A DNA stretch of 64,000 nucleotides from Minisyncoccota bacterium (GCA_035546035.1 DASZXC010000008.1:188265-252264); one strand, 5' to 3'. Numbered from the stretch's first letter, positions 7,441-35,389 are shown. Notes: a model not told the origin generated them from the letters alone. A program made the numbers and translations.

Positions 7441-8647
7441 GATACCGAATCTTTGACGCGGGCATAACCACAAACAACCATGAAAACAATGCTCTCATAC
7501 GCAGAATATCAGCGAAAAATAAGGTCCATCCGCACTCCCGAAGATGCCAAAGCGTTCGCCGAGGAACTCATTGCACCGGCAGAGGCAGTCGAAGAAAAGC
7601 CTCCTGTAGCGGTCGCGATCGAGCCTAAGCGCCCTGAACCGATCCAAGTCGAAGCACCTCGGAGGGAAAAGGATGTCGACGTGGCATCGACTCCCTGGTA
7701 TGACATCGCAGGAAACGACAACGAGGCAATGGTCATTACACTATACGCCAAAGGCCTCACGACCCGCGACATCTCAAGCTACATGAAACTCCATCATGGA
7801 GCGGACATCTCACAGCCAGGAATATCAGCCATAACCGACAAGGTGTTTCCACTGGTCAAAGAGTGGCAATCCCGCCCGCTCTCATCCTGCTATCCCGTCG
7901 TATACATGGACGGGCTCCACTTCAAGGTACGAGAGGCGGGAAAGATATCGTCCAAGGTTGCATACATCGCTCTCGGCATCAACCAGTACGGGTACAGGGA
8001 GATCCTTGGTATATGGATCTCCGAGAGCGAGGGCTCAAAGTTCTGGCTCCACGTCATGAACGACATGAAGAACAGGGGCGTAGAGGATGTCATATTCGCC
8101 TGTATCGACGGCTTAAGGGGCTTTCCGGAGGCCGTGAAGGCAGTATTCCCCGAGACGGACGTACAAGTATGCATTGTCCATCAGATACGCCATACCATCA
8201 TGTTCATTCCTTTCAAAGATCGAGAGGAATTCTGCGCCGATCTCAAAGAGGTGTATACAGCTCCGAGCGAGGAAGCAGGAATGCAGGCACTCAAAGACAT
8301 GATGTCGAGGTGGCCCCGCTATGCCATGTATCTCAAATCTTGGGAGCAGAAGTGGCACGATCTCGCGCCCTTCTTCAGCTTCCCTGAAGCCATCCGCCGC
8401 ATCATATACACTACGAACACGATAGAGAATCTCAATCGGCAGTTTAGGAAGGTGACGAAGACCACGACGGTCTTCCCGCATGACGATGCACTACTCAAGC
8501 TCCTCTGGCTCGCCCAGGCCGACATCACGCAGAACTGGACTTTAGCTACGAGAAACTGGGCCGAAGTGATGGCCCAGCTCTCGATCCTTTATCCCGACCG
8601 CATCCGCATCTAAAGATTAACACATAGCCCGCGGCAAACTCGGTATC
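7441..8647 (+). mobile_element. IS256-family insertion sequence (about 1.2 kb) with imperfect terminal inverted repeats
   Basis: Left end GATACCGAATCTTTGACGCGGGCAT (7441-7465) against the reverse complement of the right end ATAGCCCGCGGCAAACTCGGTATC (8624-8647): GATACCGA..GCGGGC match. Encloses one Mutator/IS256-type transposase. Confidence 0.5.
7480..8613 (+). CDS. IS256-family transposase
   Basis: 377 aa with a conserved IS256/Mutator core: VVYMDGLHFKVRE...YIALGINQYGYREILG...VIFACIDGLRGF...CIVHQIRHT. Confidence 0.85.
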   Translation: MKTMLSYAEYQRKIRSIRTPEDAKAFAEELIAPAEAVEEKPPVAVAIEPKRPEPIQVEAPRREKDVDVASTPWYDIAGNDNEAMVITLYAKGLTTRDISSYMKLHHGADISQPGISAITDKVFPLVKEWQSRPLSSCYPVVYMDGLHFKVREAGKISSKVAYIALGINQYGYREILGIWISESEGSKFWLHVMNDMKNRGVEDVIFACIDGLRGFPEAVKAVFPETDVQVCIVHQIRHTIMFIPFKDREEFCADLKEVYTAPSEEAGMQALKDMMSRWPRYAMYLKSWEQKWHDLAPFFSFPEAIRRIIYTTNTIENLNRQFRKVTKTTTVFPHDDALLKLLWLAQADITQNWTLATRNWAEVMAQLSILYPDRIRI

Positions 8648-9710: not shown

Positions 9711-11042
9711 CTATTCCGCGACAAACGATATCTTCTTGTCCTTGTAGCAGAGCCTGCTCCGCAGATTCGCCAAAAGCTCTCGCTTCTCCGATACGCTTCC
9801 TTCACGCAGGAGGTATTTGGCATACTCTCTCGTATTGATCTCGGTCTCGTCGATGGTCTGCTTTTTGACCGATTTGGTCGCAAGTCTCTGGAGGACGTTG
9901 TATCGCTTGATCTCCTCTTCGAGCTTCATCCTCATGCCGAGTTCGTTTAAGCTCACCTTGTCCATGATCTTGAGGAGCTCGTCTATTAGCTCCTCCTCGC
10001 GGATGTACTTGTTCTTGCAATTTCGGTCTCGCGCTCGGGAACATCCGTAGTATATGTATTTTTGGGACGTACCGTTTTTGAGTAGTTTCCACTTCTCTTC
10101 GGCCGATATACCCGACTGACAGTATCCGCAGGTGAAGAGCTTGGTGAAGGCGAACTCCTTGTTCTCTCGCACGATCTTGTCGCGCTTCAGCTGTTCCTGC
10201 GCCTTGTCGAAGAGGTCTTTGGTGATGATGGGCTCGTGCTTGCCCGTGTACCAGTTGCCGCTATTTCGTGGACGCTCGAAGATGCCGTAATAGAAGGGGT
10301 TTTGGATGATGCGGTATACGCCTGAGAGAGTGAGAGGCTTGTTGCCTCGGGTATAGAAGTTAAGCTCGAAGCGGAGCCAGTTATATATCTTCCGTCCGCT
10401 CCATTGCTCGAAGGCAACCTTTTCATACATCTTCTTTATGATCGGCGCACGGACGGGGTCGATAATGACCTGGCACTTCTTGTCCATGAGCTTTTGATTG
10501 AGGTACCCAAGTGGCGCTGTGCCTGCCCATAATCCCATCTCGGCTCGGGTGCGGAGGCCGCGCTTCACGTTGATGCCTCGGTTGTCGTTTTCAAGCTTTG
10601 CCTGCCCGCAGAGGATCATGAGCATGAACTTGTCGTTCGGGCTATTCGAGAACCTCTGACTGAACGTCCTGATATCCTGAAGCAAGCTCGCATCCATGAG
10701 GTCTACGATGCGGCCGAGGTCGCCTGCGTTTCGAGAAATGCGGTCAGGAGCCCATGTCAGTATTCCATTATACTTCCCAAGCTTGAGTTCCTCGATGATC
10801 TCGTTGAATACGGGCCTCTGGCCAGTCTCCTTGGCCGAGTGCGATTCGCGTTTCATCTCGACGATCTCGAGGCCGTCTCGCTCGGCTAATTGGAGCATCT
10901 CCTTGATCTGACTATCAATCGACAGGATCTGACGCTCCTCGGATTCCGTCGACTTCCTGGCATACAGACAATATTTCACTTTCACGGGGACCGCTACTTT
11001 GGCCAGGGTCCCTAATGGCGCTTGGGCTATATTGTTATTCAT
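9711..11042 (-). CDS. large serine recombinase (phage-type integrase)
   Basis: N-terminal resolvase domain YCLYARKSTESEERQILSIDSQ (catalytic Ser), a recombinase domain and a C-terminal zinc ribbon CGYCQSG...YYGCSRARDRNCKN. Paralog of 28598..29923. Confidence 0.85.
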   Translation of the reverse strand: MNNNIAQAPLGTLAKVAVPVKVKYCLYARKSTESEERQILSIDSQIKEMLQLAERDGLEIVEMKRESHSAKETGQRPVFNEIIEELKLGKYNGILTWAPDRISRNAGDLGRIVDLMDASLLQDIRTFSQRFSNSPNDKFMLMILCGQAKLENDNRGINVKRGLRTRAEMGLWAGTAPLGYLNQKLMDKKCQVIIDPVRAPIIKKMYEKVAFEQWSGRKIYNWLRFELNFYTRGNKPLTLSGVYRIIQNPFYYGIFERPRNSGNWYTGKHEPIITKDLFDKAQEQLKRDKIVRENKEFAFTKLFTCGYCQSGISAEEKWKLLKNGTSQKYIYYGCSRARDRNCKNKYIREEELIDELLKIMDKVSLNELGMRMKLEEEIKRYNVLQRLATKSVKKQTIDETEINTREYAKYLLREGSVSEKRELLANLRSRLCYKDKKISFVAE

Positions 11043-12433: not shown

Positions 12434-13529
<1,096 letters not shown>

Positions 13530-13880
13530 ATGAACGACCTAGACATTCCCATATTCAAGAAATCCTATAATCTCTACAAAGATTTCTATGCTCTCCGCCT
13601 ATCGGTGCCGAAGCAAGATCGCTATACTCTCTGGCAGAAATGCGAGAGTCTACTCGTTGAAGTGCTCGAAGGCATCCTTTTCGCGAGCCAACAGTCGAAA
13701 TTGGAGAAATTACCGACTTTGGAGAAGACGAGTGTCAAACTGAACTTTCTCCGCGTCTGTATCCGTCTCATGAAGGACATCAAGGCAATCGATTCCAAGA
13801 AGTACATCGTGATCGAGGCGAATCTCGATGAGATCGGAAGAATGCTCGGAGGCTGGATAAAATCCACGAAGGGACTCTAA
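13530..13880 (+). CDS. avd: DGR accessory variability determinant (Avd; four-helix-bundle / 23S-IVS protein family)
   Basis: 116 aa with a C-terminus ANLDEIGRMLGGWIKS that closely resembles the Avd/IVS-protein signature. It is transcribed divergently, back-to-back with the RT (CATATG shared by both start codons). Confidence 0.65.
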   Translation: MNDLDIPIFKKSYNLYKDFYALRLSVPKQDRYTLWQKCESLLVEVLEGILFASQQSKLEKLPTLEKTSVKLNFLRVCIRLMKDIKAIDSKKYIVIEANLDEIGRMLGGWIKSTKGL

Positions 13881-13883
13881 CAG

Positions 13884-13905
13884 AAAACCCACATATGTGG
13901 GTTTT
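13884..13905 (+). terminator. hairpin AAAACCCACATATGTGGGTTTT downstream of avd
   Basis: Perfect palindrome, T-rich on both sides. Confidence 0.5.
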
Positions 13906-13926
13906 CTCGGGATAGAGCTATGACTG

Positions 13927-14042
13927 CCGGGCAGCCGACACGCCGATGTTGCCATTGTGGTTGTCGTCGTTCCAGTTGTTGACGTTGAGACCCTTGGAAT
14001 CGAAGTTGCCGACGTTGACACGATTGCCGTCCGAGTCGAGAT
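13927..14042 (-). repeat. DGR template repeat (TR)
   Basis: 116 bp matching the VR at 14402..14517. Its coding-sense strand is adenine/AAC-rich (encodes ...NVGNFDSKGLNVNNWNDDNHNGNIGVSAAR). It is not part of any intact ORF. Confidence 0.8.
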
Positions 14043-14322
14043 ATTGCCCGTTTCCGTCCATGACACCGAGATTTGAGGTTTACTACCTTTGCAGGTCTAT
14101 ATCCTCTCATCTCTGAATTTTATTCGAGAGTAGCTTTCGTCTGAAAGCACCTCCTCTAGAAACGGGCAAGAAGTTCTCTCTATCCTCAAATCGCGCTCTG
14201 CCGTAATCCATAGACTACTAGCACTCTGGCGACACCAAAAAGGTGAGATATCTCGCGAACTTGAACCGTGATCCAAGCTACATGAGCAAGATGCGGATAT
14301 GATACCAAATTTTTATAAAAAA

Positions 14323-14354
14323 GAGGCTTCGCAAAAAAATTTTCGCGAAGCCTC
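14323..14354 (-). terminator. rho-independent terminator of the DGR target gene (10-bp stem GAGGCTTCGC/GCGAAGCCTC plus U-tract)
   Basis: Perfect stem followed by a T-run on the minus strand, downstream of the stop at 14393. Confidence 0.55.
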
Positions 14355-14392
14355 AAGGATTCAAGAGGGACAAGCCCTCAAGGGATCAAGAA

Positions 14393-15199
14393 TCACTGCT
14401 TCCGGGCAGCCGACACGCCGATGTGGCCATGGTGGAGGCCGTCGCTCCAGTCGCCGACGTTGAGACCCTCGGAATCGAAGCCGCCGACGCGGACACGACC
14501 GCCGCCCGAGTCGAGACTGGAAGTCCGAACGTAGACGTCTTCGAAGAGTCGGACACCACGAACCTCGAAATAGGTCGTGATGAACCAGCTCATCTCGGCG
14601 GCGTTCGGCACAATCTCGACTTTGGACAGGAGCTTGGTCTGCTCCTTCCACGTTTTGTTGGTCGAATTCGAGACGGGCGTCTTCTTGATGGCCATCCATC
14701 CCGACGACGTTTTGTCCTCGCGAGCGAACGTCTCCTTGTCTTCGGCATACCATCCGCCCGACTTCGAGTAGAAGTGGGCTGACTGGATCTCCCGAATATC
14801 GAGTGTCGACAGTGCCGTGGGCGGTGCGGGGATGACGGCGTAGCCGTTCTCCTTGCACCACGTGAGCACTTCTTCCGACGGCAGACTTTCGGCGAGGGCC
14901 GTGATCTGTTCGTCGGTGTAGACGATCCCTTTGCGAGCCTTGGCGACTTCCTCCGGCGTGATGAAATCCTCGCCGAGGATTGACTGTGCCAGTGCGTAGT
15001 CGGGTGCTTTGGCCGAGAAGCGACGGATGCCCTGTGCAAGATACGCGGCGAAGCCGGCATTCTCGTTCAGGCGTTGTGCGCTGTCGTCGTCGAGGTTTGC
15101 TTTGTCATATGCAGACCCGACGGTGGACATGAACTTGAGACCTTTGGGGTCCCGATGCGTAACGGTAACAGACGGGGACAATGGTTTCATTGGCGACAT
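14393..15199 (-). CDS. DGR variable (target) protein with a C-terminal lectin-like VR-encoded tail
   Basis: The C-terminal 40 aa (…GGRVRVGGFDSEGLNVGDWSDGLHHGHIGVSAARKQ) are encoded by the VR. This segment aligns with the TR with 17 mismatches, all at TR adenines. No N-terminal signal peptide is seen; the start is uncertain. Confidence 0.75.
   Translation of the reverse strand: MSPMKPLSPSVTVTHRDPKGLKFMSTVGSAYDKANLDDDSAQRLNENAGFAAYLAQGIRRFSAKAPDYALAQSILGEDFITPEEVAKARKGIVYTDEQITALAESLPSEEVLTWCKENGYAVIPAPPTALSTLDIREIQSAHFYSKSGGWYAEDKETFAREDKTSSGWMAIKKTPVSNSTNKTWKEQTKLLSKVEIVPNAAEMSWFITTYFEVRGVRLFEDVYVRTSSLDSGGGRVRVGGFDSEGLNVGDWSDGLHHGHIGVSAARKQ
14402..14517 (-). repeat. DGR variable repeat (VR) at the 3' end of the target gene
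   Basis: Base-by-base alignment with the TR. The substitutions occur only where the TR has A on the coding strand (plus-strand T changed to G, C or A at 17 sites). Confidence 0.8.
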
Positions 15200-15379
15200 C
15201 TTCTAGGTTTGCCGAAAACGTTCGGTACGACTTGCCTCAGTTGAGACGAGCTCTTTGGTGCCTAAGGATATAGGCCGCAAAAAGCTCGTCTCAAACAGTG
15301 ATTTTGTATCAAAGAACTTATCCGATGAACCAACAAATTTCTTTGCGGGTTCAATAGGATGCCGTACGAATACGGCACA

Positions 15380-15401
15380 GAGAGTATTTAGCCAGACTCT
15401 C
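15380..15401 (-). repeat. conserved 3' stem-loop motif, copy 1 (GAGAGT-ctggctaaat-ACTCTC in gene sense)
   Basis: Immediately downstream of 15413..15712(-). Followed by a second hairpin GCCGTAcgaaTACGGC (15361-15376). Confidence 0.5.
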
Positions 15402-15412
15402 AAGAAACTGGT

Positions 15413-15712
15413 TTACATGAAGCCCTCGATTCCGCCTTCTTCCACTTCGCGGAAACGATCTCGAAAGACCTTCATCTGCGCCTTGCCTTCGGGTGTTTTC
15501 AGATGATCCTCGGCCACAATGAATTCCATCGTAGCCTGGGAACAGTCGGGACAGGAGCGCAGGTGAGCGAGGAAGGCCTCCTGCTGTTCTTCGGAGGCGA
15601 GCTCGTTCATTAGGTTAATGTGATCGACCGAATGGAGGCACGGACCTACTGGATTTTTAGGGGAGAAGCAGATTGCCTCAATGAGCTTCTTCTCCATTGA
15701 TTCGGAGAGCAT
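15413..15712 (-). CDS. hypothetical Cys-containing (CPDC) small protein, possible zinc-finger / anti-sigma-like
   Basis: 99 aa with HLRSCPDC and additional Cys/His residues. It is preceded by a conserved palindromic leader and followed by a conserved stem-loop. Confidence 0.35.
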   Translation of the reverse strand: MLSESMEKKLIEAICFSPKNPVGPCLHSVDHINLMNELASEEQQEAFLAHLRSCPDCSQATMEFIVAEDHLKTPEGKAQMKVFRDRFREVEEGGIEGFM

Positions 15713-15718
15713 GGGTTT

Positions 15719-15769
15719 GAAAGAGCGACTCTACAGATCAACAACGTCGTGTTGCGGATCTGATTGAGT
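15719..15769 (-). promoter_or_regulatory. conserved palindromic 5' leader element, copy 1 (core GATC-N17-GATC dyad)
   Basis: About 50 nt that are roughly 80% identical to 16628..16680, immediately upstream of the start of 15413..15712. Confidence 0.3.
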
Positions 15770-15827
15770 AGAGAAGGTTTTTAAGCTTCTCTATTTGGAT
15801 GGCGTTTGCAGGTAACCATCTCATTAC

Positions 15828-16244
15828 CTATGAACGTTCTCCCTCGGCGAATGGCTTGTTAGCCTTTGCCGCTTGGTAGGCCTTACGATAAGGTATGCCT
15901 TTCCACGAGTTATGGAAGAACTGGACAAGCCCTGGTGCGTTGAGTTCGGACTCGACCATATTCTGGTTGAGCCTTCGAACCGACTTCAGGGTAGCCATGA
16001 CACGGCGAGTAGCATCGTATACGTCTCGAGGCGAAATCTTCTCAAGATTCTTGGGGAGCGCCGTAACATTCCGTGCATCCTCGCATACGACAATAGGGAC
16101 TCTCACGAGACGTAGGCTGAAGACAAGTCTTTCGCCTGCATCCACGATTCGGTTCGCTTCCGCCCATGCGGCTAGTTCCTTTTCGATCTCGGCAGCTTTT
16201 TGCTTTATGAGCTCATCTGCCGAAACGGTTGTCGTCGTATTCAT
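15828..16244 (-). CDS. hypothetical protein (translationally coupled to the upstream XRE regulator)
   Basis: 138 aa. Overlaps the XRE gene stop by 4 nt (ATGA-type coupling). Confidence 0.4.
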   Translation of the reverse strand: MNTTTTVSADELIKQKAAEIEKELAAWAEANRIVDAGERLVFSLRLVRVPIVVCEDARNVTALPKNLEKISPRDVYDATRRVMATLKSVRRLNQNMVESELNAPGLVQFFHNSWKGIPYRKAYQAAKANKPFAEGERS

Positions 16245-16621
16245 GCTTGCGGTTGCGTTGAGGGTTGTTGACGACGTTTGAGCAGCTCGCGGATTAGCGA
16301 GATGTTCAAAGGCGCTTTCAGTCCTTCGGCTACCGTAAGGAGGAATTTGAGGTCATCGGCTGTCACCGCGATCTCAATATCCGCCTCGTAGCCGGGAACT
16401 CCGTCCATATCGTAGCCACACATGTTGGCGAGCTCAGTTGCTGGCACTCCATACGCCTGCGCAATGCGGGTAAGTTTAGAGCGCTTGATGCACGTATCGC
16501 CTCTTTCCATGCGGTCGATGGTCGTTCGGTTACAACCAATCTCCATTCCCATCTCCTGGCTTGTGAGGCCAAGAGCAGTCCTTTTTGCGGCAAGGAGCGC
16601 GCCGATTTTCTTTTTGTCCAT
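16241..16621 (-). CDS. XRE-family helix-turn-helix transcriptional regulator
   Basis: N-terminal Cro/C1-type HTH: LTSQEMGMEIGCNRTTIDRMERG. Confidence 0.7.
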   Translation of the reverse strand: MDKKKIGALLAAKRTALGLTSQEMGMEIGCNRTTIDRMERGDTCIKRSKLTRIAQAYGVPATELANMCGYDMDGVPGYEADIEIAVTADDLKFLLTVAEGLKAPLNISLIRELLKRRQQPSTQPQA

Positions 16622-16627
16622 AAAATC

Positions 16628-16680
16628 AAAGAGCTGTGACTCTATAGATCAACGACACCATGTCGCGGATCTAATGGAGT
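16628..16680 (-). promoter_or_regulatory. conserved palindromic 5' leader element, copy 2 (upstream of the XRE regulator; candidate operator)
   Basis: Same motif (GACTCTAnAGATCAAC...GCGGATCT) directly upstream of the XRE HTH gene start at 16621. Confidence 0.3.
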
Positions 16681-16707
16681 GGACGATATTTTATAATCGT
16701 CCATTTG

Positions 16708-16729
16708 GAGAGTATTTAACCAGACTCTC
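16708..16729 (-). repeat. conserved 3' stem-loop motif, copy 2 (GAGAGT-ctggttaaat-ACTCTC)
   Basis: Overlaps the stop of 16732..17187(-). Followed by a second hairpin GGACGATtataaaatATCGTCC (16681-16702). Confidence 0.5.
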
Positions 16730-16731
16730 AA

Positions 16732-17187
16732 TTAACTGAAACGGGAAACGCCCGTCATCGACCGATTTGGCGGCGAAGCGACAGCCTCGATTTCGGCTTG
16801 GTAGCCGAGGCTCGTGAGAGCCCACCGAAGATCCTTTGCGGCATCCGCCACCATCTGGCGCGAATTCTGCTTGAGAAGCTTGGTGTCGATGTGCTGGATC
16901 GTCACCGTCGTGGTCTCGCGCCCGACGCGCACCATGGCCCACACCAGATCGGGTCCTTTGCTGGTCTCACCAAGGACCAGATAGAGATACTCAATGGTGT
17001 CGTCGTCAACGAAGCGATGGCGATTTTCATAGCCCTTCGATTCGATGATGTGGCGAGCGGTCTCGAGCGCCATCCTCCGCTCGTTCCGACGGCGTTTGAT
17101 CGCGCTCAGCCAGAAGCCTCCGAAGAGGGCGACGATGGTGAACGTCCACACACCGAGGATGAGGAGAATTGAAGTCATTGGTTTCAT
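16732..17187 (-). CDS. hypothetical membrane protein
   Basis: Start taken at the internal ATG (MKPMTSILLILGVWTFTIVALFGGFWL), which has one TM helix. The track ORF extends upstream to 17505 through low-complexity sequence. Confidence 0.35.
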   Translation of the reverse strand: MKPMTSILLILGVWTFTIVALFGGFWLSAIKRRRNERRMALETARHIIESKGYENRHRFVDDDTIEYLYLVLGETSKGPDLVWAMVRVGRETTTVTIQHIDTKLLKQNSRQMVADAAKDLRWALTSLGYQAEIEAVASPPNRSMTGVSRFS

Positions 17188-17408
17188 AAGTAAGTTGAGT
17201 TTAGTGAGGAAATCTACGATTCGCTTGGCAACGAGCCAGCAAGTCAATCGCTTCTTTCCTTCCAAACTCAACAAGTCAAAGAACATTCTGTTTCGTCCTT
17301 TTGGACTCGTCAGTCGGGATACGCATCCCGATACAGAGACCGGATTGGAGTCTCCGGTGTTTTTGATTCTGTTGCCAAGATGGTTTTCTCCATCTCCGTC
17401 ACATCGTC

Positions 17409-17663
17409 TCAGGGCAATCCCTGGACGATGGCAACTCTGGTTCCCTTTGAAAGAGGGAAACTCAGCGGGCTCCCGTAAACCCCGATAACCCCGTTGCTGC
17501 GCCACTCCGTGAGGCCGTCATGTTCTTCAGACACATGAGGCAGATCCAGATCCGCCTTGATGGCCTCGTTCGAGTCCGCAACACGTGATTTCTTGGGGAG
17601 GGAACCCTTAAAGTCCTTTTGGGACTTGAATGACTTTTTCGTAACGATGATTTTGGTGGTCAT
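17409..17663 (-). CDS. hypothetical small protein
   Basis: 84-aa ORF in the same orientation as its neighbours, with no motif. Confidence 0.25.
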   Translation of the reverse strand: MTTKIIVTKKSFKSQKDFKGSLPKKSRVADSNEAIKADLDLPHVSEEHDGLTEWRSNGVIGVYGSPLSFPLSKGTRVAIVQGLP

Positions 17664-17798
17664 AGGAATAAAAGAGTAAGTATTTATTCCCTTATTCCTA
17701 TGACCGTCTTAAATTCAAAGAGCTGTACTTTATGAATCCGCGATATCGCTATCGTGAACTCAATGAAGTGGGGAATCTTGTTTAAGGATTCCCCAATT

Positions 17799-17822
17799 TG
17801 AGGGTGTTTAACCAGACCCTCA
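17799..17822 (-). repeat. conserved 3' stem-loop motif, copy 3 (TGAGGGT-ctggttaaac-ACCCTCA; stem covaries, loop is conserved)
   Basis: Overlaps the stop of 17820..18488(-). Followed by a second hairpin GGGGAATCcttaaacaaGATTCCCC (17770-17794). Confidence 0.5.
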
Positions 17823-18488
17823 GTTAACTGGTGAACGGAAGACGAACTTCACCCACTTGAGCTCCGTTTTTAGGCGGTGGCTCTCGAAGTGGAGATGATC
17901 GGCAGTGAGACAGCAGGCGTAGCTCTTGTTCGGTGCATCGCCCTCAGAGCACACGGTCCAATACTCTCCCTCCTTGAGCTCTTCCTCTGGACGACATTCC
18001 GCACCCTTCTTCATATGCTCAGCGAGGCTGATCATATGAGAATAATGCGGGAGTCGCAGGAAGCTCGAGCTCGCGGCGATCTCTACAGCTTCGAACCAAG
18101 TCATTTTCATGGGCTCGGTCGGAAGCCACTGTTCACCCGGCTGAAGGCCGAGGTTCTTGTAGTAGAGCCTGTGCTTGACGATGATGTCCATCACCAGTTT
18201 CTGCGCATCAGTCCAACTGATGAAGAATCCTTCGCTTCGCACCGGCTCCGTGAGGAGCATCGCCTTGTCTCCGAGCGCAAGCCTGACTTTCGCGAGAAAG
18301 TCGCCTTGCGTCGCCTGCTTGAGGAGAGCGCTCGTCCAATCATTGCGACGGAGCGCCATCTCGAGTTCATGTCCCTGGCCTTGGCCCAATACGAACGTGT
18401 CATTCATGACGTGTTTTCCTGGTTTTGCAACGATGTACTTGCGTACGGTGTTGCGTTTTGCCTCTGGCCAACCGACGTGGTTTGCCAT
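17820..18488 (-). CDS. hypothetical protein
   Basis: 222-aa ORF. Its stop lies inside a conserved stem-loop motif. Confidence 0.4.
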   Translation of the reverse strand: MANHVGWPEAKRNTVRKYIVAKPGKHVMNDTFVLGQGQGHELEMALRRNDWTSALLKQATQGDFLAKVRLALGDKAMLLTEPVRSEGFFISWTDAQKLVMDIIVKHRLYYKNLGLQPGEQWLPTEPMKMTWFEAVEIAASSSFLRLPHYSHMISLAEHMKKGAECRPEEELKEGEYWTVCSEGDAPNKSYACCLTADHLHFESHRLKTELKWVKFVFRSPVN

Positions 18489-19012
18489 AGCTCCGAAACA
18501 CCTGCATTAGGAGGCTCGGAGCTATGGCAAACGTGGGGCTTATCAAGGTTCTATTCTCATGCAATTATACACCATAATATGGCTCTCTGTCAAGCTCAAT
18601 CGTGCAGGCACCTTTCGACTCTCCAAGAACTAGCCCTCAACCAAGCCACCCCATAGAAATACCCTTAAAAGCCCTAGTTTAAGCCCTTTTTGGGCCATCA
18701 AAATGGCTCTGTTGAGCTGTTGGCAACGGGGCTTCGCAAAGCCCTCCTTTCGAGCTAAGGTACATGACTGATATTCGCTTTCGGGGTATCATGGTCAATG
18801 ACAATTTAATAGGAAAGCCTAACCTCTAGGAAAATCACGTTTTTCTAGAGCATGGTCAAAAAATCTCCCGCTAGAGATCAAAGGACTCCCAGTCAGAGTC
18901 GCTCTAGCGGGTCGTGTCTGGAAACGGATACGGGCGGGCCGAAAGGTTCGCCGCGATGGCTGGGAGCCCTTTGTTATTCGGTCTCTCAGTCACATTAAAA
19001 ACCCGCTAGAAA

Positions 19013-19678
19013 ATGGAAAATAATAAACAGTCTTCTGAGGTTAAGACTAAAAATATAACCTTCGGCCTCGTATTCGGTTGGATCCTCGGCGTCATCTTTG
19101 TCATCCTCGGCATCACGAACATCGCAATCCATCCCGTATCAGGCATTCTTTTTATCCTCACTGCTCTCATCGCTTTGCCTCCGATGAACAAACTTCTGAG
19201 GGATAAAGCGCACGTCAATCTCTCAAAGGGCCTTCGTGTCATCATCGTTCTCATACTCATGATCTCCGGCTTTGCCTTCATCGGGTCGAGCGCGGTGAAG
19301 GAAGCGGAGACGAATACTGTCGCTGATGCTTCGAATACAGCTCCTGCGCCCACTCCGGTTCCAACCATAAAAATATCCGCCGATAAGATCATGGATGACT
19401 ACACCGCCAACGAAGTAGCCGCCGATGCCAAGTACAAGAACAACGTTGTCTCGGTCACGGGCATCGTCGACTCCATAGGCAAGGATATCGTTGATACACC
19501 ATACATCGCTTTGAAAACCGGAGGACAGTATTCCATATCGGTCGTGCAGTGCATGTTCCCAAGATCAGCAGAATCAATTCTCGCTAATATCTCGAAGGGT
19601 GAATATATGACACTTCAGGGCAAGGTCACGGGCAAGCTCGGAAATATCATCTTGAGCGGCTGTTCTATCGCGAAGTAG
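19013..19678 (+). CDS. hypothetical membrane protein with a C-terminal OB-fold-like domain
   Basis: Four N-terminal TM helices, then a soluble domain (…NVVSVTGIVDSIGKD…MTLQGKVTGKLGNIILSGC). Confidence 0.35.
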   Translation: MENNKQSSEVKTKNITFGLVFGWILGVIFVILGITNIAIHPVSGILFILTALIALPPMNKLLRDKAHVNLSKGLRVIIVLILMISGFAFIGSSAVKEAETNTVADASNTAPAPTPVPTIKISADKIMDDYTANEVAADAKYKNNVVSVTGIVDSIGKDIVDTPYIALKTGGQYSISVVQCMFPRSAESILANISKGEYMTLQGKVTGKLGNIILSGCSIAK

Positions 19679-21205
19679 CTAAAGGAAATATATCCTCGGA
19701 AGCACGGGTGCGTGCTCGGTGACGCTCTGGACGAGGATGGAGAAAGCGTCGACGAGATCGTCGTGCTTCTCGACCCCAAAGTGAACGATCTGCTGAATCA
19801 GTTCCTCCGCGCCCTCCTTGGGAAAGAGTATCTTTCCTGTCTTGATGAGATTCGCCGTGAGGGCAAGCCTTGATCTCTTGTCTTGGTTTCCTGGCCTTGT
19901 CGGAATGACGTTATGGAGACCCTCTTCCTTGAGCTGTTGTGGCAGAGCTTTCTGATATGCAACGTCTTCCACGATGAAGGTTGGCCTCTCATCGCTTGCC
20001 TTGGTATATGCCACGTCGAGAGCCTTGCAGAGGTCGACAGTCTCGGGGAAATTGAGTCTTCGATTGATGATTTTAGGTAGGATATAGATGCGATAGCCGC
20101 TATAGAGCTCGTAGAGCATGCCGGGAACCATGGCGGTGTAGTCGGCGGCGTCGCTTTTCGATATGGCAAGGTCGACACCGATACGGACTTCCATGTGGGT
20201 CATATACCCGCCGAAGCCCTTCTCGGGAGGCGGAATTACGTCATAGTATTGGATCCATTCGCGATGTATCGCTTGTTCTTCGTCAGCGACGATACGGAGA
20301 AGGTATTCGCGTTCCCATGCGAACTCGTTTCCGGCCTTTTTCTTTTCATCCTCTATATCCTCAAGAGACGCATACTTTCCAGGCCAGAGAATCTTCTCAT
20401 TTTGAATCAAGGGATATTCGCGAAACGTACCCGTGAGCTTTCCACGGCCTATGTCTTCTTTCATCCTCATCAAAAGCGAATCCTCGTGGAGGAGGTTTCC
20501 GACGATGACAAGCCTCGTATCGCGATCTCCTGCGGGGATGACCTCGGCCGTGAGCCACTGATATGTCTTGCTTCGGCCTTCGCGGGTTTTGGTCGAGGCG
20601 AGATCCTCTATGTCGTCGCAGACGATTAGATCGGGGCGGTGCTGATTGTGACGGAGGCCACGAATCGATTGCTCGGTCGATACGGCCGTGATGCGGGCAT
20701 CGAGTTGCGAGAATACCAAGGACGACGATCCCCATTGATCTGACTCTTCTTGAAATGGCCCAAGGTCATTCTTGAGGATGGTATTGTTTTCAAGTTCACG
20801 TCGAAGGTTCATCATATGCTGCTTGGCCTGGCTCTGGGTCTGACAGGCGATAAGCACAAATCTTTTTGACTGCTCGCCGAGAATGGCCCACAGAGGATAC
20901 GAGGTCGTGAGGATGGTCGACTTGCCGCATCCTCGAAAAGCCACGATGAAGAGATTGCTGTTATCGCTTTTCTCGGTGAGCCTGAATATCTCCTCATGAA
21001 AAGGAGCCGTCCTGTATTTGACGTAGTGGGAGAGGTAGAAATGGAAGAAGTAATGGTGACTCTTCCTAGTGATTGCCGTCCTCACTTTTCTGTCCTTGAG
21101 CATCGCCTCCACCAATTGGGGCGGCATCGCTCTTTTCGGTTGTATCGTTTGGTTTTCCATTGTCGTTAATGTCGACCGCGACCGCTGTCTCTGTCTCGAC
21201 CTCAC
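19679..21205 (-). CDS. phage terminase large subunit
   Basis: Walker A VAFRGCGKSTILT, Walker B LIVCDDIEDL, and a C-terminal RNaseH-like nuclease region. The true start is probably an internal Met (MENQ at about 21160), because the track ORF overlaps the small-subunit gene. Confidence 0.75.
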   Translation of the reverse strand: MRSRQRQRSRSTLTTMENQTIQPKRAMPPQLVEAMLKDRKVRTAITRKSHHYFFHFYLSHYVKYRTAPFHEEIFRLTEKSDNSNLFIVAFRGCGKSTILTTSYPLWAILGEQSKRFVLIACQTQSQAKQHMMNLRRELENNTILKNDLGPFQEESDQWGSSSLVFSQLDARITAVSTEQSIRGLRHNQHRPDLIVCDDIEDLASTKTREGRSKTYQWLTAEVIPAGDRDTRLVIVGNLLHEDSLLMRMKEDIGRGKLTGTFREYPLIQNEKILWPGKYASLEDIEDEKKKAGNEFAWEREYLLRIVADEEQAIHREWIQYYDVIPPPEKGFGGYMTHMEVRIGVDLAISKSDAADYTAMVPGMLYELYSGYRIYILPKIINRRLNFPETVDLCKALDVAYTKASDERPTFIVEDVAYQKALPQQLKEEGLHNVIPTRPGNQDKRSRLALTANLIKTGKILFPKEGAEELIQQIVHFGVEKHDDLVDAFSILVQSVTEHAPVLPRIYFL

Positions 21206-21572
21206 CCGAAGCCAAGCGTAGAGCCTCTCGGACGAGGGCTTCTTGTTCGGGAGTGAGCTCTTCCTGGCGAGTAACGGCGGTTACTTCGAGCTTGTTTTTG
21301 TATTCAGGATGGTGGTGACGGAGCCACTGCATGATGGCCGTCATGTTCTTGTCCTTGATGGCCGATATGAGCTGGCTTTCGGCCAGGTCGTTCACCATGA
21401 GCTTGCCTTCGGCGAGGGCTTCAAGAGCGAGCTTCTCGAATTCCTTGTCCTCTTTGAGCCAGCGGTAGTAGGTCATGCGGGAAACGCCCGTCTTTTCGCA
21501 GGCGATTTGGATCACGGGCGTTTTTCTGAATTGCTCAAGCAATATCTCTTTGTTTTTGTCGGTCTTGTTCAT
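21066..21572 (-). CDS. terminase small subunit-like HTH DNA-binding protein
   Basis: HTH PVIQIACEKTGVSRMTYYRWLKEDKEF. It sits directly upstream of the large terminase. There is a paralog at 31884..32603. Confidence 0.5.
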   Translation of the reverse strand: MNKTDKNKEILLEQFRKTPVIQIACEKTGVSRMTYYRWLKEDKEFEKLALEALAEGKLMVNDLAESQLISAIKDKNMTAIMQWLRHHHPEYKNKLEVTAVTRQEELTPEQEALVREALRLASGEVETETAVAVDINDNGKPNDTTEKSDAAPIGGGDAQGQKSEDGNH

Positions 21573-24539: not shown

Positions 24540-24555
24540 GTATACTTGTTTATAC
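24540..24555 (+). promoter_or_regulatory. candidate operator palindrome GTATA-N6-TATAC overlapping the RBS region of the LexA-like gene
   Basis: Inverted repeat GTATActtgttTATAC, 3 nt upstream of the ATG at 24558. Confidence 0.3.
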
Positions 24556-24557
24556 CT

Positions 24558-25193
24558 ATGCTTCAATATCTAAGCGACAAGGATAAAGAGGTCTATGTGC
24601 TCGTCCGTAACAGGATAGTCCACGGCCTTAAGACTCCCACTCTCGAAGAGATAAACAAAGTGACAGGTAAGTCGTCCCCACGATCGGCGGTTCTTGCGCT
24701 CGAAAGGCTCGAAAAGGCCGGTCTTCTGAGGAGGATGGGAGGAAAAATCCGACTTATGAGTCAGAGCTTAACTCCAAACGCTTCCATCTCTACCATTGAG
24801 GTACCGCTTGTCGGCACGATTGCCGCAGGTGCTCCGATCCTCGCAGAAGAGAATGTCGAAGCGATGATTCCCGTATCGACCGCTATAGCGAAACCTGGCT
24901 CGAAGTACTTCTTGCTTCGCGTCACGGGCACGTCGATGAACATGGCGAAAGTGAATGGGGTCAAAATCGACGAAGGTAGCATCGTCTTGGTCAGGCGACA
25001 GGAGACTGCGGATGATGGGGACATTGTAGTGGCGCTTATCGACGACAGCGCGACAGTCAAGGTCCTCGAACGAAAGAATGGCATGGTCATTCTTCGCCCA
25101 AAGTCTTCCGACCCGCACAAGCCGATCATATTAACAAATAATTGTATCGTTCAGGGGGTGGTAGTCGGAGTATTGCCGTCTGATCTCTATTAA
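24558..25193 (+). CDS. LexA-like repressor (winged HTH plus S24 self-cleaving peptidase domain)
   Basis: N-terminal wHTH (LEEINKVTGKSSPRSAVLALERLEKAGLL), Ala-Gly cleavage site VGTIAAGAPI, catalytic Ser in GTSMNMA and Lys in ATVKVL. The track ORF starts at TTG 24546. Confidence 0.75.
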   Translation: MLQYLSDKDKEVYVLVRNRIVHGLKTPTLEEINKVTGKSSPRSAVLALERLEKAGLLRRMGGKIRLMSQSLTPNASISTIEVPLVGTIAAGAPILAEENVEAMIPVSTAIAKPGSKYFLLRVTGTSMNMAKVNGVKIDEGSIVLVRRQETADDGDIVVALIDDSATVKVLERKNGMVILRPKSSDPHKPIILTNNCIVQGVVVGVLPSDLY

Positions 25194-25211
25194 CAGCTAT
25201 GAAAAATAACT

Positions 25212-26339
25212 ATGCCTGAACGCCCAAGCATACCCGATCAGGTAAAGCTCAAGCTCTGGGCGCTTTCTGGTGCGCGTTGCGAGTTCCCGGGCTGTAACAA
25301 GTATGTCTGGCGAGACGGCCTTACCCTCAAAGACGATAATTTCGCTCACATGGCTCATATCATTGCGGCGAACCCTGGCGGTCCCCGTGGCGATGAGGTC
25401 GCTTCTCCAGAGTTAGCTACCGACTATGACAACCTTATGCTCCTATGCTTTGATCACTCGAAGCTCGTAGACGGCAAAAACAAATGCGATTACACCATCG
25501 AGTATCTGCGAGAATACAAACGATCTCATGAGGACAGAATTCGCCGTCAGACAGAGCTGTCGCCAGAGATGACGACCACGGTCTTGAGATTCTCAGCGAA
25601 TATCGGTGATCGTCCTGTGGAGGTTTCCACAAAACAAGCTTATCAGGCGATACTGCCACGTTATCCCGCAGATGACCGCGGCATAGCCCTCGATTTCACT
25701 AACCGCCCAGGCCGAGGCAAGGCGGACTTTTGGACGTCTTTCGCGTCGGAGATAAGCGAACGAGTCGAGAAAGAGCTAAGGGCGGGCAACGACCGTTCTC
25801 GGCCAAGTCATATCTCCGTATTCGCACTTGGTCCTATTCCTCTGCTTGTCCACTTGGGCAATGCCATAGGTAATACCATCTCCGCCGATCTGTATCAGCG
25901 ACACCGCGATACTGAGAACTGGACATGGAAGAATGAGGCTCAAGATGATCTCGCCTATGAGGTCAAGGAAACGAAAGGAGAAACTGGAGGCGATATAGCC
26001 GTGGTCTTGTCCCTGAGCGGTAAGATCCATTACGATGAGGTGTATAAGCTCTTTGCTAAAAAACCTCATCTCTATGAGATAACCATTGCCACTCCTGCGC
26101 CTGGCTTCCTTGCCTCAAGACCGAAGCTCGAAAAGTTTCGATTGGCCTATCGTGAGCTTCTCACCAAAATCAGGACTCTTCACGGCGGAGGAACAGTAAT
26201 TCATCTCTTTCCGGCTATTCCCGCGCCGATTGCGGTCGTCTGCGGACGAGAGATACTGCCGAAGTCAGACCCGAAAATGACGGTCTACGATCACGAAAAC
26301 GCTCAAGGTGGATTTATTCCGATTCTAACAATTAATTAA
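25212..26339 (+). CDS. HNH endonuclease fused to a SAVED-like sensor domain (Cap5-like CBASS effector)
   Basis: N-terminal HNH (CEFPGCNKY...AHMAHII...LLCFDHSK) followed by a C-terminal domain of about 280 aa. This architecture and its adjacency to a CD-NTase match Cap5. The SAVED call is by architecture and context, not by explicit alignment. Confidence 0.55.
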   Translation: MPERPSIPDQVKLKLWALSGARCEFPGCNKYVWRDGLTLKDDNFAHMAHIIAANPGGPRGDEVASPELATDYDNLMLLCFDHSKLVDGKNKCDYTIEYLREYKRSHEDRIRRQTELSPEMTTTVLRFSANIGDRPVEVSTKQAYQAILPRYPADDRGIALDFTNRPGRGKADFWTSFASEISERVEKELRAGNDRSRPSHISVFALGPIPLLVHLGNAIGNTISADLYQRHRDTENWTWKNEAQDDLAYEVKETKGETGGDIAVVLSLSGKIHYDEVYKLFAKKPHLYEITIATPAPGFLASRPKLEKFRLAYRELLTKIRTLHGGGTVIHLFPAIPAPIAVVCGREILPKSDPKMTVYDHENAQGGFIPILTIN

Positions 26340-26340
26340 C

Positions 26341-27234
26341 ATGGATATACAAAAATTTCTTAACAGCCTGCTTGCCTCGCAAGATCTGCTCATCGAGCAG
26401 GAAAACTCGCTTCAGACGCACAAAAAAGAGGTGACCGATTTCCTTGTCGCTGAATTTGGCAATAAGCCCAAGATCAAATACGCGGGGTCCCGAGAGAAAG
26501 GCACAATGATCCGCGACAGCTACGACCTCGACATCGTGTGCTACTTCCCGAGCACCGATACACGAAGTCTCAAGGAAATCCGTCAGGAGGTGTCGGATCA
26601 TTTGAGCCAACGCTACGTCATGCAGGACAAGGCATCAGCTGAGAGGATAACCAATCTCAAAGGTGCTAAGACGCCTGAGAGCTATCACATAGACGTTGTG
26701 CCGGGCCGATTCATAGAGGGTAGCAACGATGTATTCATCCATGTCGCCTATGGAGACAAGGAGCGCATGCAGACGAATCTCAAGACGCATATCGACCATA
26801 TTGCCAAGAGCGGATGCGTGCCAGTAATCAGGCTCGTAAAACTCTGGAGTGTCCGAAATAACGTATCAATCAAGACCTTCATTCTCGAGCTCTTCGTTGT
26901 CGAGGTACTCAAAGGTAGTCAGAACAAGGGCGATCTTCGTAGCGGCTTCATCAAAGTCATGGAAGCTCTCCGAGATAATTTTGGATCAATGCAACTTGTT
27001 GATCCTGCAAACTCGAACAACGTCGTTTCAAGGACGATAGATTCATCCCAGCGTGTCATGGTTTCTCACGTCGCGGATGAGACACTCTCTAAAATAGAGG
27101 ATTCCACTAATCTCTCTGATTGGAGGGCGGTATTTCATGAGGAAAATGATCGAGGTACTACCGCTTCACGCTCATATACTCCAGATGCTGGCCCGACTAT
27201 CATCAACAATCCTTCAAAACCATGGGCGTGGTAG
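26341..27234 (+). CDS. cGAS/DncV-like nucleotidyltransferase (CD-NTase / SMODS)
   Basis: Pol-beta NTase signature GSREKGTMIRDSYDLDIV (GS-x10-DxD), a third acidic residue in HIDVVP, and a helical C-terminal domain. The start codon lies 2 nt after the Cap5-like stop. Confidence 0.6.
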   Translation: MDIQKFLNSLLASQDLLIEQENSLQTHKKEVTDFLVAEFGNKPKIKYAGSREKGTMIRDSYDLDIVCYFPSTDTRSLKEIRQEVSDHLSQRYVMQDKASAERITNLKGAKTPESYHIDVVPGRFIEGSNDVFIHVAYGDKERMQTNLKTHIDHIAKSGCVPVIRLVKLWSVRNNVSIKTFILELFVVEVLKGSQNKGDLRSGFIKVMEALRDNFGSMQLVDPANSNNVVSRTIDSSQRVMVSHVADETLSKIEDSTNLSDWRAVFHEENDRGTTASRSYTPDAGPTIINNPSKPWAW

Positions 27235-27950
27235 ACGGTAGTGTGACGCGGTACGTTTTCACACCAGAAGAGATAGCAGAAATCGGGCAAAGGTATGGCC
27301 TTGAGCTCATCACACCAAGTGTTTGGAAAGGAACGCTCAACATCTATGCCTCGTATAACGGCCTGCCGCTGAAGGATAAGTTCGAGATAAAAATCGGGAT
27401 ACCTTTTAACTATCCGAATTCGACTCCAGTTATGTCGGAAGTGGGAGGCCGTACTGCGACCATAATTAAAAAGTATAAGATCAAGGATCCGCGCGATCTC
27501 CACTTCAACATCGGTAGCGAGACGGCCTGTCTCTGTGTGCGCCAAGAGGAAAAGAAAAAGTTTCCGCCAGGCTCGTCACTATCGGTCTTCATAGAGAATC
27601 TCGTGATTCCGTATCTTTACGGCCTGAGTCATTTCGATATGTATCGAAAATGGCCATGGGGAGAAAGGTCGCATGGTGTCCTCGGCATGCTTGAGTTTTA
27701 TGGAGAAAATCCCGACAAACAGACAGAGGAAAGTATGAGGGAAATTACCGCCGCTTTACGACCAGAGAAAAATTGGAAGGAATACGATAAACAGCTACGA
27801 AATCCTCGTCCGCATGGTCGGTGTGTTTGTGGTAAAGATAAATCATTTGAGAAATGTCATTTCGCGGCTTTTCAGGGTGTAGTCTGCTTCAACGAAGACC
27901 TCAAACGTCTAGGCATCACCACCGCAAAACTGTTTCAGTCACGACCCTAA
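27222..27950 (+). CDS. E2 ubiquitin-conjugating-enzyme-like protein (type II-short CBASS Cap2-like, E2 only)
   Basis: UBC-like HPN-type motif HFNIGSETACLCV with a candidate catalytic Cys. Overlaps the CD-NTase gene by 13 nt. Confidence 0.45.
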   Translation: MGVVDGSVTRYVFTPEEIAEIGQRYGLELITPSVWKGTLNIYASYNGLPLKDKFEIKIGIPFNYPNSTPVMSEVGGRTATIIKKYKIKDPRDLHFNIGSETACLCVRQEEKKKFPPGSSLSVFIENLVIPYLYGLSHFDMYRKWPWGERSHGVLGMLEFYGENPDKQTEESMREITAALRPEKNWKEYDKQLRNPRPHGRCVCGKDKSFEKCHFAAFQGVVCFNEDLKRLGITTAKLFQSRP

Positions 27951-28273: not shown

Positions 28274-28543
28274 ACCCCTAATATATACCCTATGATAAAG
28301 CTGTCAACAGAGCCAATGTTACAGTCCAAAAAGGCCTTTATGCTGTAACATTTGTAACATTCCTGTGAATGAGACATGATCCGAACTAGCCCTTTCCGTG
28401 TCTCATTTGTCTCATTCACAAAATTCGACCCCGACCCACGTACCTCATTTCCGCCTGCCGAAAAATGCTATTATGCCCTTACGGGGTCTTACCTCATGGG
28501 TACTTAACCCGACTACACCGCATAGTGAATAAGGTATCGGACA

Positions 28544-31257: not shown

Positions 31258-31388
31258 ACACTAAGTCTTTGGAGGTATTACACAATCTTTTGTATCTAAG
31301 CTAAGGTACTGACTGGTATCTCTTTTTGGGATATCATGTAGTTACAACTGAATAAAAAAGTAGCCTAAACCCTCGAGAAATCGGCGGC

Positions 31389-35388: not shown

Positions 35389-35389
35389 A
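35374..35389 (+). repeat. 16-bp direct repeat AACCCACGTACCTAAA (right copy)
   Basis: Identical to 28544..28559. Confidence 0.5.

Follow-up and report, generated by a model that had tools for sequence, protein, structure and literature searches.

A conserved RNA pseudoknot at the 3' ends of small variable genes in Patescibacteria

Regulatory cassettes that flank swappable ORFans and phage operons that are punctuated by ribozymes are both already known. The promoter-early stem-loops (PeSLs) are mobile regulatory cassettes of T4-type phages (Arbiol et al. 2010, PMC2839356; PMC4122927). Clustered hammerhead ribozymes flank variable prophage genes, where they were suggested to divide long transcripts into mRNAs of gene length (Perreault et al. 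2011, PMC3088659), and conserved structures near clustered ribozymes have led to new ribozyme classes (PMC4604425). Here, we describe an RNA element from a 64,000-nt stretch of DNA of a Minisyncoccota bacterium (GCA_035546035.1, DASZXC010000008.1:188265-252264), which as a whole is called the window in the following and in which an array of small minus-strand genes shares a structured 3' end. The element, a small pseudoknot, is a conserved RNA structure that always caps an open reading frame (ORF), forms the right-hand border of an exchanged slot and includes a terminator in its canonical copies. What is new is the pseudoknot motif with its restriction to Patescibacteria, its pairing with hammerheads and its five-cassette fused array that feeds the target gene of a diversity-generating retroelement (DGR); no description of the motif was found in Rfam or in the searched literature.

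The PeSLs are similar to the units described here in that both pair a strong sigma-70 promoter with a terminator stem-loop around small ORFans. In both cases replacements or insertions between close relatives map to the motifs, which is seen here for the slot of three related loci (L094, L097, and L108), and the related locus L106 likewise shows a terminator-then-promoter composite between tandem units. Unlike PeSLs, which consist of a stem-loop only, the element has a conserved pseudoknot with invariant loops, and some of the units add a hammerhead. Also unlike PeSLs, which lie in phage hyperplastic regions, the units are located in Patescibacteria chromosomes or islands. A phage-borne element was considered and rejected, as none of the 84 matches from an IMG/VR scan, in which the stem could vary while loop and flank were fixed, had a complementary stem, so that all were chance matches, and a BLAST search of GenBank phages with the element gave no match.

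The initial annotation of the window had described three stem-loops with a conserved loop at the ends of three of the small genes, and all three were located where it had placed them. All element coordinates refer to the whole 64-kb window, and the copies E1 to E4, the cassettes and their promoter lie on the minus strand, which is the gene sense. The loop is CTGGCTAAAT in E1 (15386-15395, between GAGAGT at 15396-15401 and ACTCTC at 15380-15385), CTGGTTAAAT in E3 (16714-16723, between GAGAGT at 16724-16729 and ACTCTC at 16708-16713), and CTGGTTAAAC in E4 (17806-17815, between GAGGGT at 17816-17821 and ACCCTC at 17800-17805), where the stem reaches 7 bp if T17822 pairs with A17799. The stop codon of the upstream ORF lies 1 nt 5' of a CCAG flank in E1 (TAA, 15413-15415), falls within the motif in E3 (TAA, 16732-16734), and overlaps the start of the stem in E4 (TGA, 17820-17822). 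Each stem-loop is followed by a second, different perfect hairpin (SL2), which had been reported at a distance of 3-5 nt and which we measured at 2-5 nt (15360-15377 in E1, 16681-16702 in E3, and 17770-17794 in E4). Alignment of the complete spacers revealed a repeated unit of about 105-120 nt that is present four times in the window, whereby the first hairpin has diverged to GATGG/CCATC (stem-loop 15798-15820) in the fourth copy, E2 (15716-15829). Each spacer consists of three successive hairpins and folds with z-scores of -3.5 to -5.2 against shuffles (-5.2 for E3). The third one, SL3, is an extended hairpin of 4 + 6 + 5 bp with a 1x1 internal loop, and it is followed by a conserved box, GCTCTTTGA, just 5' of the next start codon. 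RNAalifold predicted 27 pairs from the four window copies, 14 of them with compensatory changes. E2, the pairing between flank and loop described below, SL3 and the box in every spacer, as well as a hammerhead at the one junction that lacks the motif, go beyond what had been annotated.

The conserved loop begins with a CUGG that is complementary to the conserved flank CCAG on the 5' side, and together with the stem this forms an H-type pseudoknot with the helix S1 (CCAG/CUGG), the loop L1 (UUNNNU), the helix S2 (GAGAGU/ACUCUC), and the loop L3 (YUAAAY). S1 is backed by two independent compensatory variants. In E2, the flank reads AGGTAA and the loop starts with TTACCT, so that 6 bp can form at the corresponding position (p about 0.025 for a chance run of this kind in any register). 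In L113, which was retrieved only as a homolog of a cassette protein and not by the motif, a CCGG flank faces a CCGG loop, and the A-U pair is replaced by G-C through a change on both sides. All cells (100%) of both helices are paired among 15 distinct sequences; double-sided changes between GC, AU, and GU occur in two columns of S2, and there are seven G·U cells versus zero A·C cells in the gene sense. In the G+C-rich SL2, four of six pairs covary. A short variable hairpin (SL0) abuts the CCAG in 76% of the copies compared to 40% at control offsets (p = 0.002), which gives it moderate support, and it covaries between the orthologous cassettes of L100 and L113 (AGCGG/CTGCT and AGTGG/CCACT, respectively). 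Compensatory changes are present in the first hairpin (SL1), the pseudoknot helix, SL2, and SL3, and they support a structure under selection, in agreement with the previous claim of a selected RNA or DNA structure and not a random similarity. Since wobble pairs are permitted on the gene-sense strand only, the structure would have to form in mRNA, or in single-stranded DNA of the same strand. The occurrence of G·U without A·C, together with the U-tracts in the relatives presented below, points to a motif that acts as RNA in the gene sense. We also considered the box as a copy of the 5' half of the pseudoknot or as a partner of its S2b strand; the likeness is confined to YTTGA.

The initial annotation had named as an outcome speaking against a real element that only three copies exist and relatives lack the motif. 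This does not hold, since the pseudoknot was found in eight Patescibacteria genomes and on 12 metagenome contigs. A scan of species-representative genomes, in which loop, flank, and two closing pairs were fixed and four stem pairs were free, led to 11 loci, while about four were expected by chance as estimated from pattern degeneracy and collection size. Eight of these come from Saccharibacteria, Paceibacterota, or other Patescibacteria metagenome-assembled genomes and have complementary stems in all eight cases; the other three are not from Patescibacteria and their stems are not complementary. In the metagenome scan, where both flanks were left free, 12 out of 12 loci were true copies, and CCAGTT occurred in every one of them although it was outside the pattern. 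The strict patterns yielded one or two copies per genome, and protein-based retrieval of relatives had a low yield. The suggested covariance-model search, carried out with a model from 20 copies and with filters off, recovered only E1, E3, and E4 in the 64 kb as well as a second tandem copy in L106, whereby E1 is the window copy nearest to the form in other genomes (73 bits). For none of the motif copies was an Rfam 15 family obtained at gathering or permissive thresholds (E <= 10), and the best sub-threshold matches (ATPC with 17 bits, and miRNA models) were chance matches.

In the relatives, SL2 typically reads CCCGCA-UUCG-UGCGGG and is followed by the U-tract UUUUGUUUU, which makes it an intrinsic terminator; such a U-tract lies behind SL2 in 18 of 20 related units. 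In E1, SL2 has kept the UUCG loop on a covaried stem and the U-tract is gone, and no U-tract follows SL2 in any of the four window copies. The earlier statement that the second hairpins are not standard intrinsic terminators, for want of a U-tract, was correct for the window copies as such, but it does not extend to the relatives, and judging from its sequence the second hairpin of the window is a derived intrinsic terminator.

All 22 copies are placed in sense orientation at the 3' end of an ORF. Relative to CAGTT, L097 has its stop codon at +33, and the other 21 of the 22 units have theirs between -22 and +8. A stop supplied by the motif is used by about 45% of the ORFs, which then end in PVS, PVN, or PVK, so that the overlap between motif and stop codons, proposed as a check, applies to this share. 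Every canonical copy of the motif offers a TGA in one frame; those with TAAY in loop 1 add a TAA in a second frame, and in some copies a TAA or TAG of the third frame is found in the spacer. These positions also bear on the idea of a selfish or passive repeat, similar to repetitive extragenic palindromic (REP) elements, bacterial interspersed mosaic elements (BIMEs), or miniature inverted-repeat transposable elements (MITEs), that spreads by transposition and has no role in the cassettes. A structured extragenic element that is repeated within an operon does resemble REP elements, which are known to stabilise upstream mRNA. However, the copy number is low and clustered, with four copies within 2.5 kb and none elsewhere in the 64 kb, all of them ORF-sense, and one or two per genome by the strict patterns; the strictly sense-oriented position at ORF ends and the conservation of the loop sequence across classes of Patescibacteria would not be expected either, and among the sequences that were read we noticed neither terminal inverted repeats nor target duplications. 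We therefore regard a passive repeat as extremely improbable.

The ORFs upstream of the motif are mutually unrelated and mostly ORFans without a Pfam family. The only recurrent cassette protein family was observed in L097, L100, L106, L107, and L113; it carries the motif G-[YLW]-[RK]-P-A-[TS]-x-x-[ED]-L-[LI], has six members among 5.8 billion proteins and contains no Pfam domain. The downstream genes are ordinary and unrelated as well (holA-like, MFS transporter, tRNAs), and the gene or tRNA that follows the motif in L109 and L091 is convergent to it. Since the downstream genes are unrelated or sometimes convergent, a function as leader or riboswitch of the downstream gene was ruled out.

The clearest view of the slot comes from L094, L097, and L108, whose flanks are 91-99% identical over kilobases and enclose unrelated inserts of 237, 567, and 646 bp. 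The homology ends a few bases past a TTGACA-17-TGTATAAT promoter that the three loci have in common, and it sets in again 3-21 nt before CAGTT. Because unrelated ORFs lie exactly between promoter and motif in near-identical flanks, the content of the slot is replaceable. As in PeSLs, a strong promoter and a terminator thus flank ORFans at the breakpoints, here at the -10 box and at SL0/CCAG. A near-consensus promoter is present 270-1045 nt upstream in 14 of 20 units, most of the others being on truncated contigs. In the leaders of related units, a YTTGA box is located 15-35 nt past the -10 box and is followed by a hairpin that encloses the start codon; the same box ends the junction elements of the window. 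L106 contains two or three complete tandem units, each with promoter, box, leader, ORF, SL0, pseudoknot, and terminator.

An exchange at such precise borders could also be explained by a recombination site at the DNA level, that is, an attC-like cassette boundary that is cut by a site-specific recombinase or by a single-strand transposase recognising the hairpin. The swap in the three loci exactly at the motif border, the ORFs that often run into the motif and use its stops, the promoterless small ORFs of the same orientation behind a single promoter in the window, and the two large serine recombinases of the surrounding island are in line with this idea. With integron arrays, the window indeed shares the layout of one promoter, promoterless ORFs of the same orientation, a structured 3' element, and a hypervariable content. 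Unlike integrons, however, there is no integrase, the signal lies on the RNA-sense strand, and single units have their own promoter and terminator; unlike attC, which is one imperfect hairpin with R and L boxes, the element is composed of a pseudoknot and separate hairpins. Pfam scans of the ORFs across 0-37 kb found no Phage_integrase-type protein or other tyrosine recombinase, only the two large serine recombinases and an IS256-type transposase, which bears out the previous remark that an integron integrase is missing. The likeness of GTTAAAY to the integron core GTTRRRY had rightly been called superficial, as E1 and most relatives read GCTAAAT and the bases sit in a loop of the pseudoknot. 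An integron attC site was consequently rejected because of the missing integrase, the wrong structure and the core that is not conserved. With regard to DNA-level sites in general, the G·U pairs suit the mRNA-sense strand only, the canonical copies are working-type terminators with U-tracts, and the swapped segment is bordered on its left by the promoter and not by a second copy of the site. Homologs of the serine recombinases or the reverse transcriptase of the window were found near the motif only in L109 among the fetched loci, where other recombinase families were not searched for. Taken together, we consider a DNA-level recombination site quite unlikely.

In the window, the best reading is that five cassettes were fused head to tail into one read-through operon, which is composed of the following parts in the order of transcription:

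18564-18593 (-): sigma-70 promoter with perfect consensus, TTGACA-18-TATAAT, extended TGTATAAT, which drives the whole array
18480-18551 (-): leader of cassette 1 with the box GAACCTTGATAAG (18539-18551) and a 17-bp hairpin (18480-18533) around the ATG of the 222-aa gene
17820-18488 (-): ORF of cassette 1, 222 aa, with the stop TGA from the motif and the C-terminus ...PVN
17713-17853 (-): junction E4 with SL0 (17830-17853), pseudoknot (17800-17831; S1 CCAG/CTGG, S2 GAGGGT/ACCCTC; covariance model 53 bits), SL2 (17770-17794), SL3 (17727-17769), and the box CAGCTCTTTGAAT (17713-17725)
17409-17663 (-): ORF of cassette 2, 84 aa, without family match
17339-17358 (-): stable hairpin ACCGGA-N8-TCCGGT directly 5' of the hammerhead
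17285-17339 (-): type III hammerhead with the core CUGACGA...GAAAC and the cleavage triplet GUA, at the junction of the 84-aa and 151-aa genes, without pseudoknot
17188-17284 (-): box GTTCTTTGA (17276-17284) and structured leader of about 90 nt (GTTGAGTTTGGAAGGAAA...CCTCAC.AAACTCAAC) upstream of the 151-aa gene
16732-17187 (-): ORF of cassette 3, 151 aa, with an N-terminal hydrophobic stretch seen by eye and the stop TAA inside the motif
16624-16756 (-): junction E3 with SL0 (16740-16756), pseudoknot (16708-16739; S1 UCAG/CUGG, including U·G; covariance model 51 bits), SL2 (16681-16702), SL3 (16639-16680), and box (16624-16636)
15828-16621 (-): cassette 4 with an HTH/XRE (helix-turn-helix) regulator of 126 aa (16241-16621) and an ORFan of 138 aa (15828-16244), which overlap by 4 nt (ATGA)
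15716-15829 (-): junction E2 with pseudoknot (S1 AGGTAA 15824-15829 and TTACCT 15810-15815; S2 GATGG 15816-15820 and CCATC 15798-15802), SL2 (15770-15792), SL3 (15728-15769), and box (15716-15727)
15413-15712 (-): ORF of cassette 5, 99 aa, with a weak zf-HC2 match
15307-15411 (-): junction E1 with pseudoknot (15380-15411), SL2 with UUCG loop (15360-15377), SL3 (15320-15359), and box (15307-15319)
14323-15306 (-): operon end with a leader hairpin (15200-15306), the DGR target gene (14393-15199), and a strong intrinsic terminator (14323-14354)

Seven minus-strand ORFs thus lie behind the promoter at 18593-18564 without a consensus promoter between them. Since U-tracts and internal promoters are gone and each junction has either SL3 or a hammerhead, the promoter at 18593 would read through up to the DGR target. 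The window promoter GCCATATTATGGTGTATAAT resembles the promoters of related units, e.g., GCCATATTCGGGTGTATAAT of L097. The 222-aa protein has no Pfam, PHROG, or PADLOC match; by eye, a stretch LPTE...W...A resembles DGR targets of the C-type-lectin or FGE-like (formylglycine-generating-enzyme-like) type. The 126-aa regulator matches Pfam HTH_31 (1e-11), whereas the 138-aa ORFan matches itself alone among 5.8 billion proteins; the two share one cassette in a layout like that of a toxin-antitoxin or regulator-effector pair. In the leaders at 18480-18533 and 15200-15306 of the window, at 5800-5895 of L106, and at 600-660 of L113, the start codon is enclosed by a long perfect hairpin, which suggests translational control or 5' insulation.

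Autonomous units of promoter, gene, and terminator between unrelated genes are also known as phage morons, and L109 provides an example for this likeness. L109 shares its backbone with the island around the window array (recombinase 56-60% identical, tRNA_anti-like protein 68%, terminase 56%), and it carries a pseudoknot cassette between the terminase and the tRNA_anti-like gene. As these two genes abut in the window, the cassettes behave like morons. Unlike morons, they are defined by a shared conserved 3' RNA structure.

The one remaining junction of the array is formed by the hammerhead at 17285-17339. The Rfam alignment to RF00008 shows an intact core, three stems, and the GUA triplet, with a score of 43.8 bits (E = 2e-7 to 1e-8), which falls slightly short of the gathering score of 48.5. 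After the predicted cleavage, the preceding hairpin (17339-17358) would form the 3' end of the upstream RNA. The leader of about 90 nt behind the hammerhead (17188-17275) is homologous to leaders in L097 and L106, and it is not coding, because the reading frame is broken in L106. The same arrangement of hairpin and hammerhead occurs in L109 (45.8 bits), in L099 (48.7 bits, above gathering) and, by eye, in L091. In all four units, including the window, the ORF behind the hammerhead ends in a pseudoknot. The same mRNA thus carries a hammerhead as its 5' module and a pseudoknot as its 3' module. As in the clustered prophage hammerheads, a type III ribozyme is placed between or before small changing genes (PMC3088659). 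Unlike in those clusters, only one of the five window junctions is a hammerhead, and the other four are pseudoknots, which are not a known ribozyme. In a BLAST search of plasmids, the hammerhead was matched but nothing else of the element; this match covers 51 nt at 88% on the 220-kb Bacillus velezensis plasmid NZ_AP024502.1 (37929-37979), falls into an unannotated stretch and is, judging from the sequence, probably an unannotated hammerhead ribozyme.

It could also be that the pseudoknot, alone or together with SL2 and SL3, is a new RNA-processing element, i.e., a self-cleaving ribozyme or an RNase substrate that punctuates the transcript. This would fit with the one hammerhead and four pseudoknot junctions of the array that all lie upstream of the same box, with the four units in which hammerhead and pseudoknot bracket the same ORF, with the strongly conserved unpaired nucleotides, and with the precedent of ribozymes clustered around variable prophage genes (PMC3088659), whose nearby structures yielded new classes (PMC4604425). 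However, there is no similarity to the models of twister, twister-sister, pistol, hatchet, HDV, or hairpin ribozymes, and most copies stand directly before a terminator, where cleavage has little purpose. As in the pistol ribozyme, a pairing between loop and downstream sequence and a UUAAAU linker are present. The topology differs from pistol, since the pseudoknot strand lies outside the P2/P3 junction and there is no separate P2, and RF02679 gave no match at E <= 10. A processing element is therefore very unlikely in our opinion. A variant of it, in which the pseudoknot is the 3' partner of the 5' hammerhead and, as a new self-cleaving or dedicated-RNase motif, releases the cassettes as discrete RNAs, appears just as improbable. 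If it were true, a released cassette RNA could be circularised by ligation or even copied back into DNA, which would amount to a ribozyme-bounded, integrase-free mobile gene-cassette system in Patescibacteria. A link to the reverse transcriptase of the DGR was considered and rejected, as no homolog of it was present in any related locus.

The explanation that we favour with moderate confidence, as far as the sequences allow, is that of a portable expression cassette, for which the motif provides the 3' RNA module at the ends of small variable Patescibacteria genes. Such a cassette would comprise a near-consensus promoter, sometimes a hammerhead, the YTTGA box, a hairpin at the start codon, any ORF, and finally the pseudoknot with the terminator. 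The compact, self-folding pseudoknot may fix and protect the 3' end of the mRNA, and it may shield the terminator hairpin from mispairing with the ever-changing coding sequence upstream, while its stops would end translation of incoming ORFs in whichever frame meets one. Hammerhead and leader would fulfil the equivalent task at the 5' end. Since promoter and pseudoknot-terminator are the only sequences common to unrelated cassettes, they could in addition serve as homology handles, between which the ORF would be replaced by homologous recombination. Synthetic ribozyme insulators are the engineered analogue of a 5' hammerhead with a structured leader, and engineered insulated cassettes, which combine a ribozyme insulator with a strong terminator, would have a natural counterpart here if the units are indeed insulated.

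Several observations weigh against this explanation. The copies of the window cannot function in termination, as they have no U-tracts, and SL3 has so far been found in this window only. L114, which encodes a distant homolog of a cassette protein, has an ordinary hairpin-terminator and no pseudoknot, so the pseudoknot is dispensable. Above all, the unpaired nucleotides U5, U6, U10, U22, and A23-A25 are invariant across classes of Patescibacteria. This exceeds the need for plain stability, could indicate a specific protein, ligand, or catalytic role, and is the main observation that the cassette model does not fully explain. Such invariance would suit a specific recognition element, by which a bound protein or ligand controls termination, read-through, or decay, or else a trans-acting small RNA (sRNA) derived from the 3' UTR. 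Small H-type pseudoknots with an A-rich third loop next to a terminator are found in several riboswitch aptamers, e.g., that of the preQ1-I riboswitch. The element shares with such aptamers a pseudoknot of about 32 nt, the A-rich third loop and the position immediately 5' of an intrinsic terminator, and read-through variants do exist in the window. Unlike preQ1-I aptamers, it is located at the 3' ends of ORFs and not in the 5' leaders of one gene class, it has no Rfam match, and there is no obvious antiterminator. No antiterminator that pairs pseudoknot and SL2 was found by eye, the upstream and downstream genes have no common function, and no Rfam riboswitch or sRNA family appeared even at E <= 10. 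An internal sRNA promoter was not noticed, whereby the related loci were not scanned for one. Overall, we consider a specific recognition element unlikely.

Almost nothing is known about RNA biology or gene gain in Patescibacteria, ultra-small bacteria with tiny genomes which make up a large share of bacterial diversity, and the element adds an RNA structure that is conserved, has the support of covariation and is missing from Rfam. The motif flags slots of ORFan turnover between near-identical genomes and hence offers a handle on gene turnover and possibly gene birth. As pseudoknot and hammerhead occur on the same mRNAs, the question of the role of bacterial hammerheads becomes testable here. 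Saccharibacteria are open to genetic manipulation, and if the insulation holds, promoter, hammerhead, leader, and pseudoknot-terminator would be a ready-made expression cassette for them.

The array is part of a phage-like island that encodes a small (21066-21572) and a large terminase subunit (19679-21205; PHROG E = 9.5e-10 and 7.5e-79, respectively), DNA methyltransferases, a LexA-like repressor, a cyclic-oligonucleotide-based anti-phage signalling system (CBASS), two large serine recombinases, and the DGR. The DGR is complete (12434-15199, minus strand), and its target is the last gene of the cassette operon. Its reverse transcriptase is distributed over two ORFs (12873-13529 and 12434-12871), which a frameshift or an error of the assembly may have split. 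The target gene encodes 268 aa and has the variable repeat (14399-14516) at its 3' end, and the template repeat lies at 13924-14041. The two repeats differ almost only at adenines of the template (A to G 16, A to C 6, A to T 1).

Two LOOT RNAs (RF03000; 71 and 81 bits) were detected at 18816-18952 and 31362-31484 on the plus strand of the window, and a further one at 8957-9076 in L109. A LOOT RNA lies directly upstream of a tRNA_anti-like OB-fold gene both in the window (19013-19678) and in L109, where the LOOT RNA also adjoins a large serine recombinase; the second LOOT RNA of the window has no tRNA_anti-like gene downstream. LOOT may be the leader of the tRNA_anti-like gene or an end-marker of this mobile element. 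A link between LOOT and the pseudoknot was judged coincidental, as a weak match antisense to the second LOOT RNA (31413-31462, E = 1.1) has only CCAGTTTCCTGA in common with the motif, this sequence is not present in the first LOOT RNA, and 18 of 19 distinct related loci scanned were without LOOT.

The two large serine recombinases (9711-11042 and 28598-29923, minus strand) are paralogous and share a 300-nt DNA repeat with 72% identity. A 56-nt direct repeat (71%; 28427-28482 and 35368-35423) brackets about 7 kb with the second recombinase, the second LOOT RNA, a terminase-small-like protein, and a ParB-methyltransferase, and its two copies are possible att sites of a nested element. Further defence and mobile genes surround the island (5098-6294, 7480-8613, and 24546-27950). 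Near the island, there are a Shedu SduA (Pfam 2e-35), an IS256/Mutator transposase (6e-85), a LexA/S24-like repressor, and a type II CBASS with a faint SMODS match, SAVED, and an E2 protein (PADLOC 7e-33). At 46842-51051, there is a type IV pilin cluster, as is typical of Patescibacteria, with a series of genes whose prepilin-type N-termini (GFTLIELLVV-like) show up as a family of 45-nt DNA repeats.

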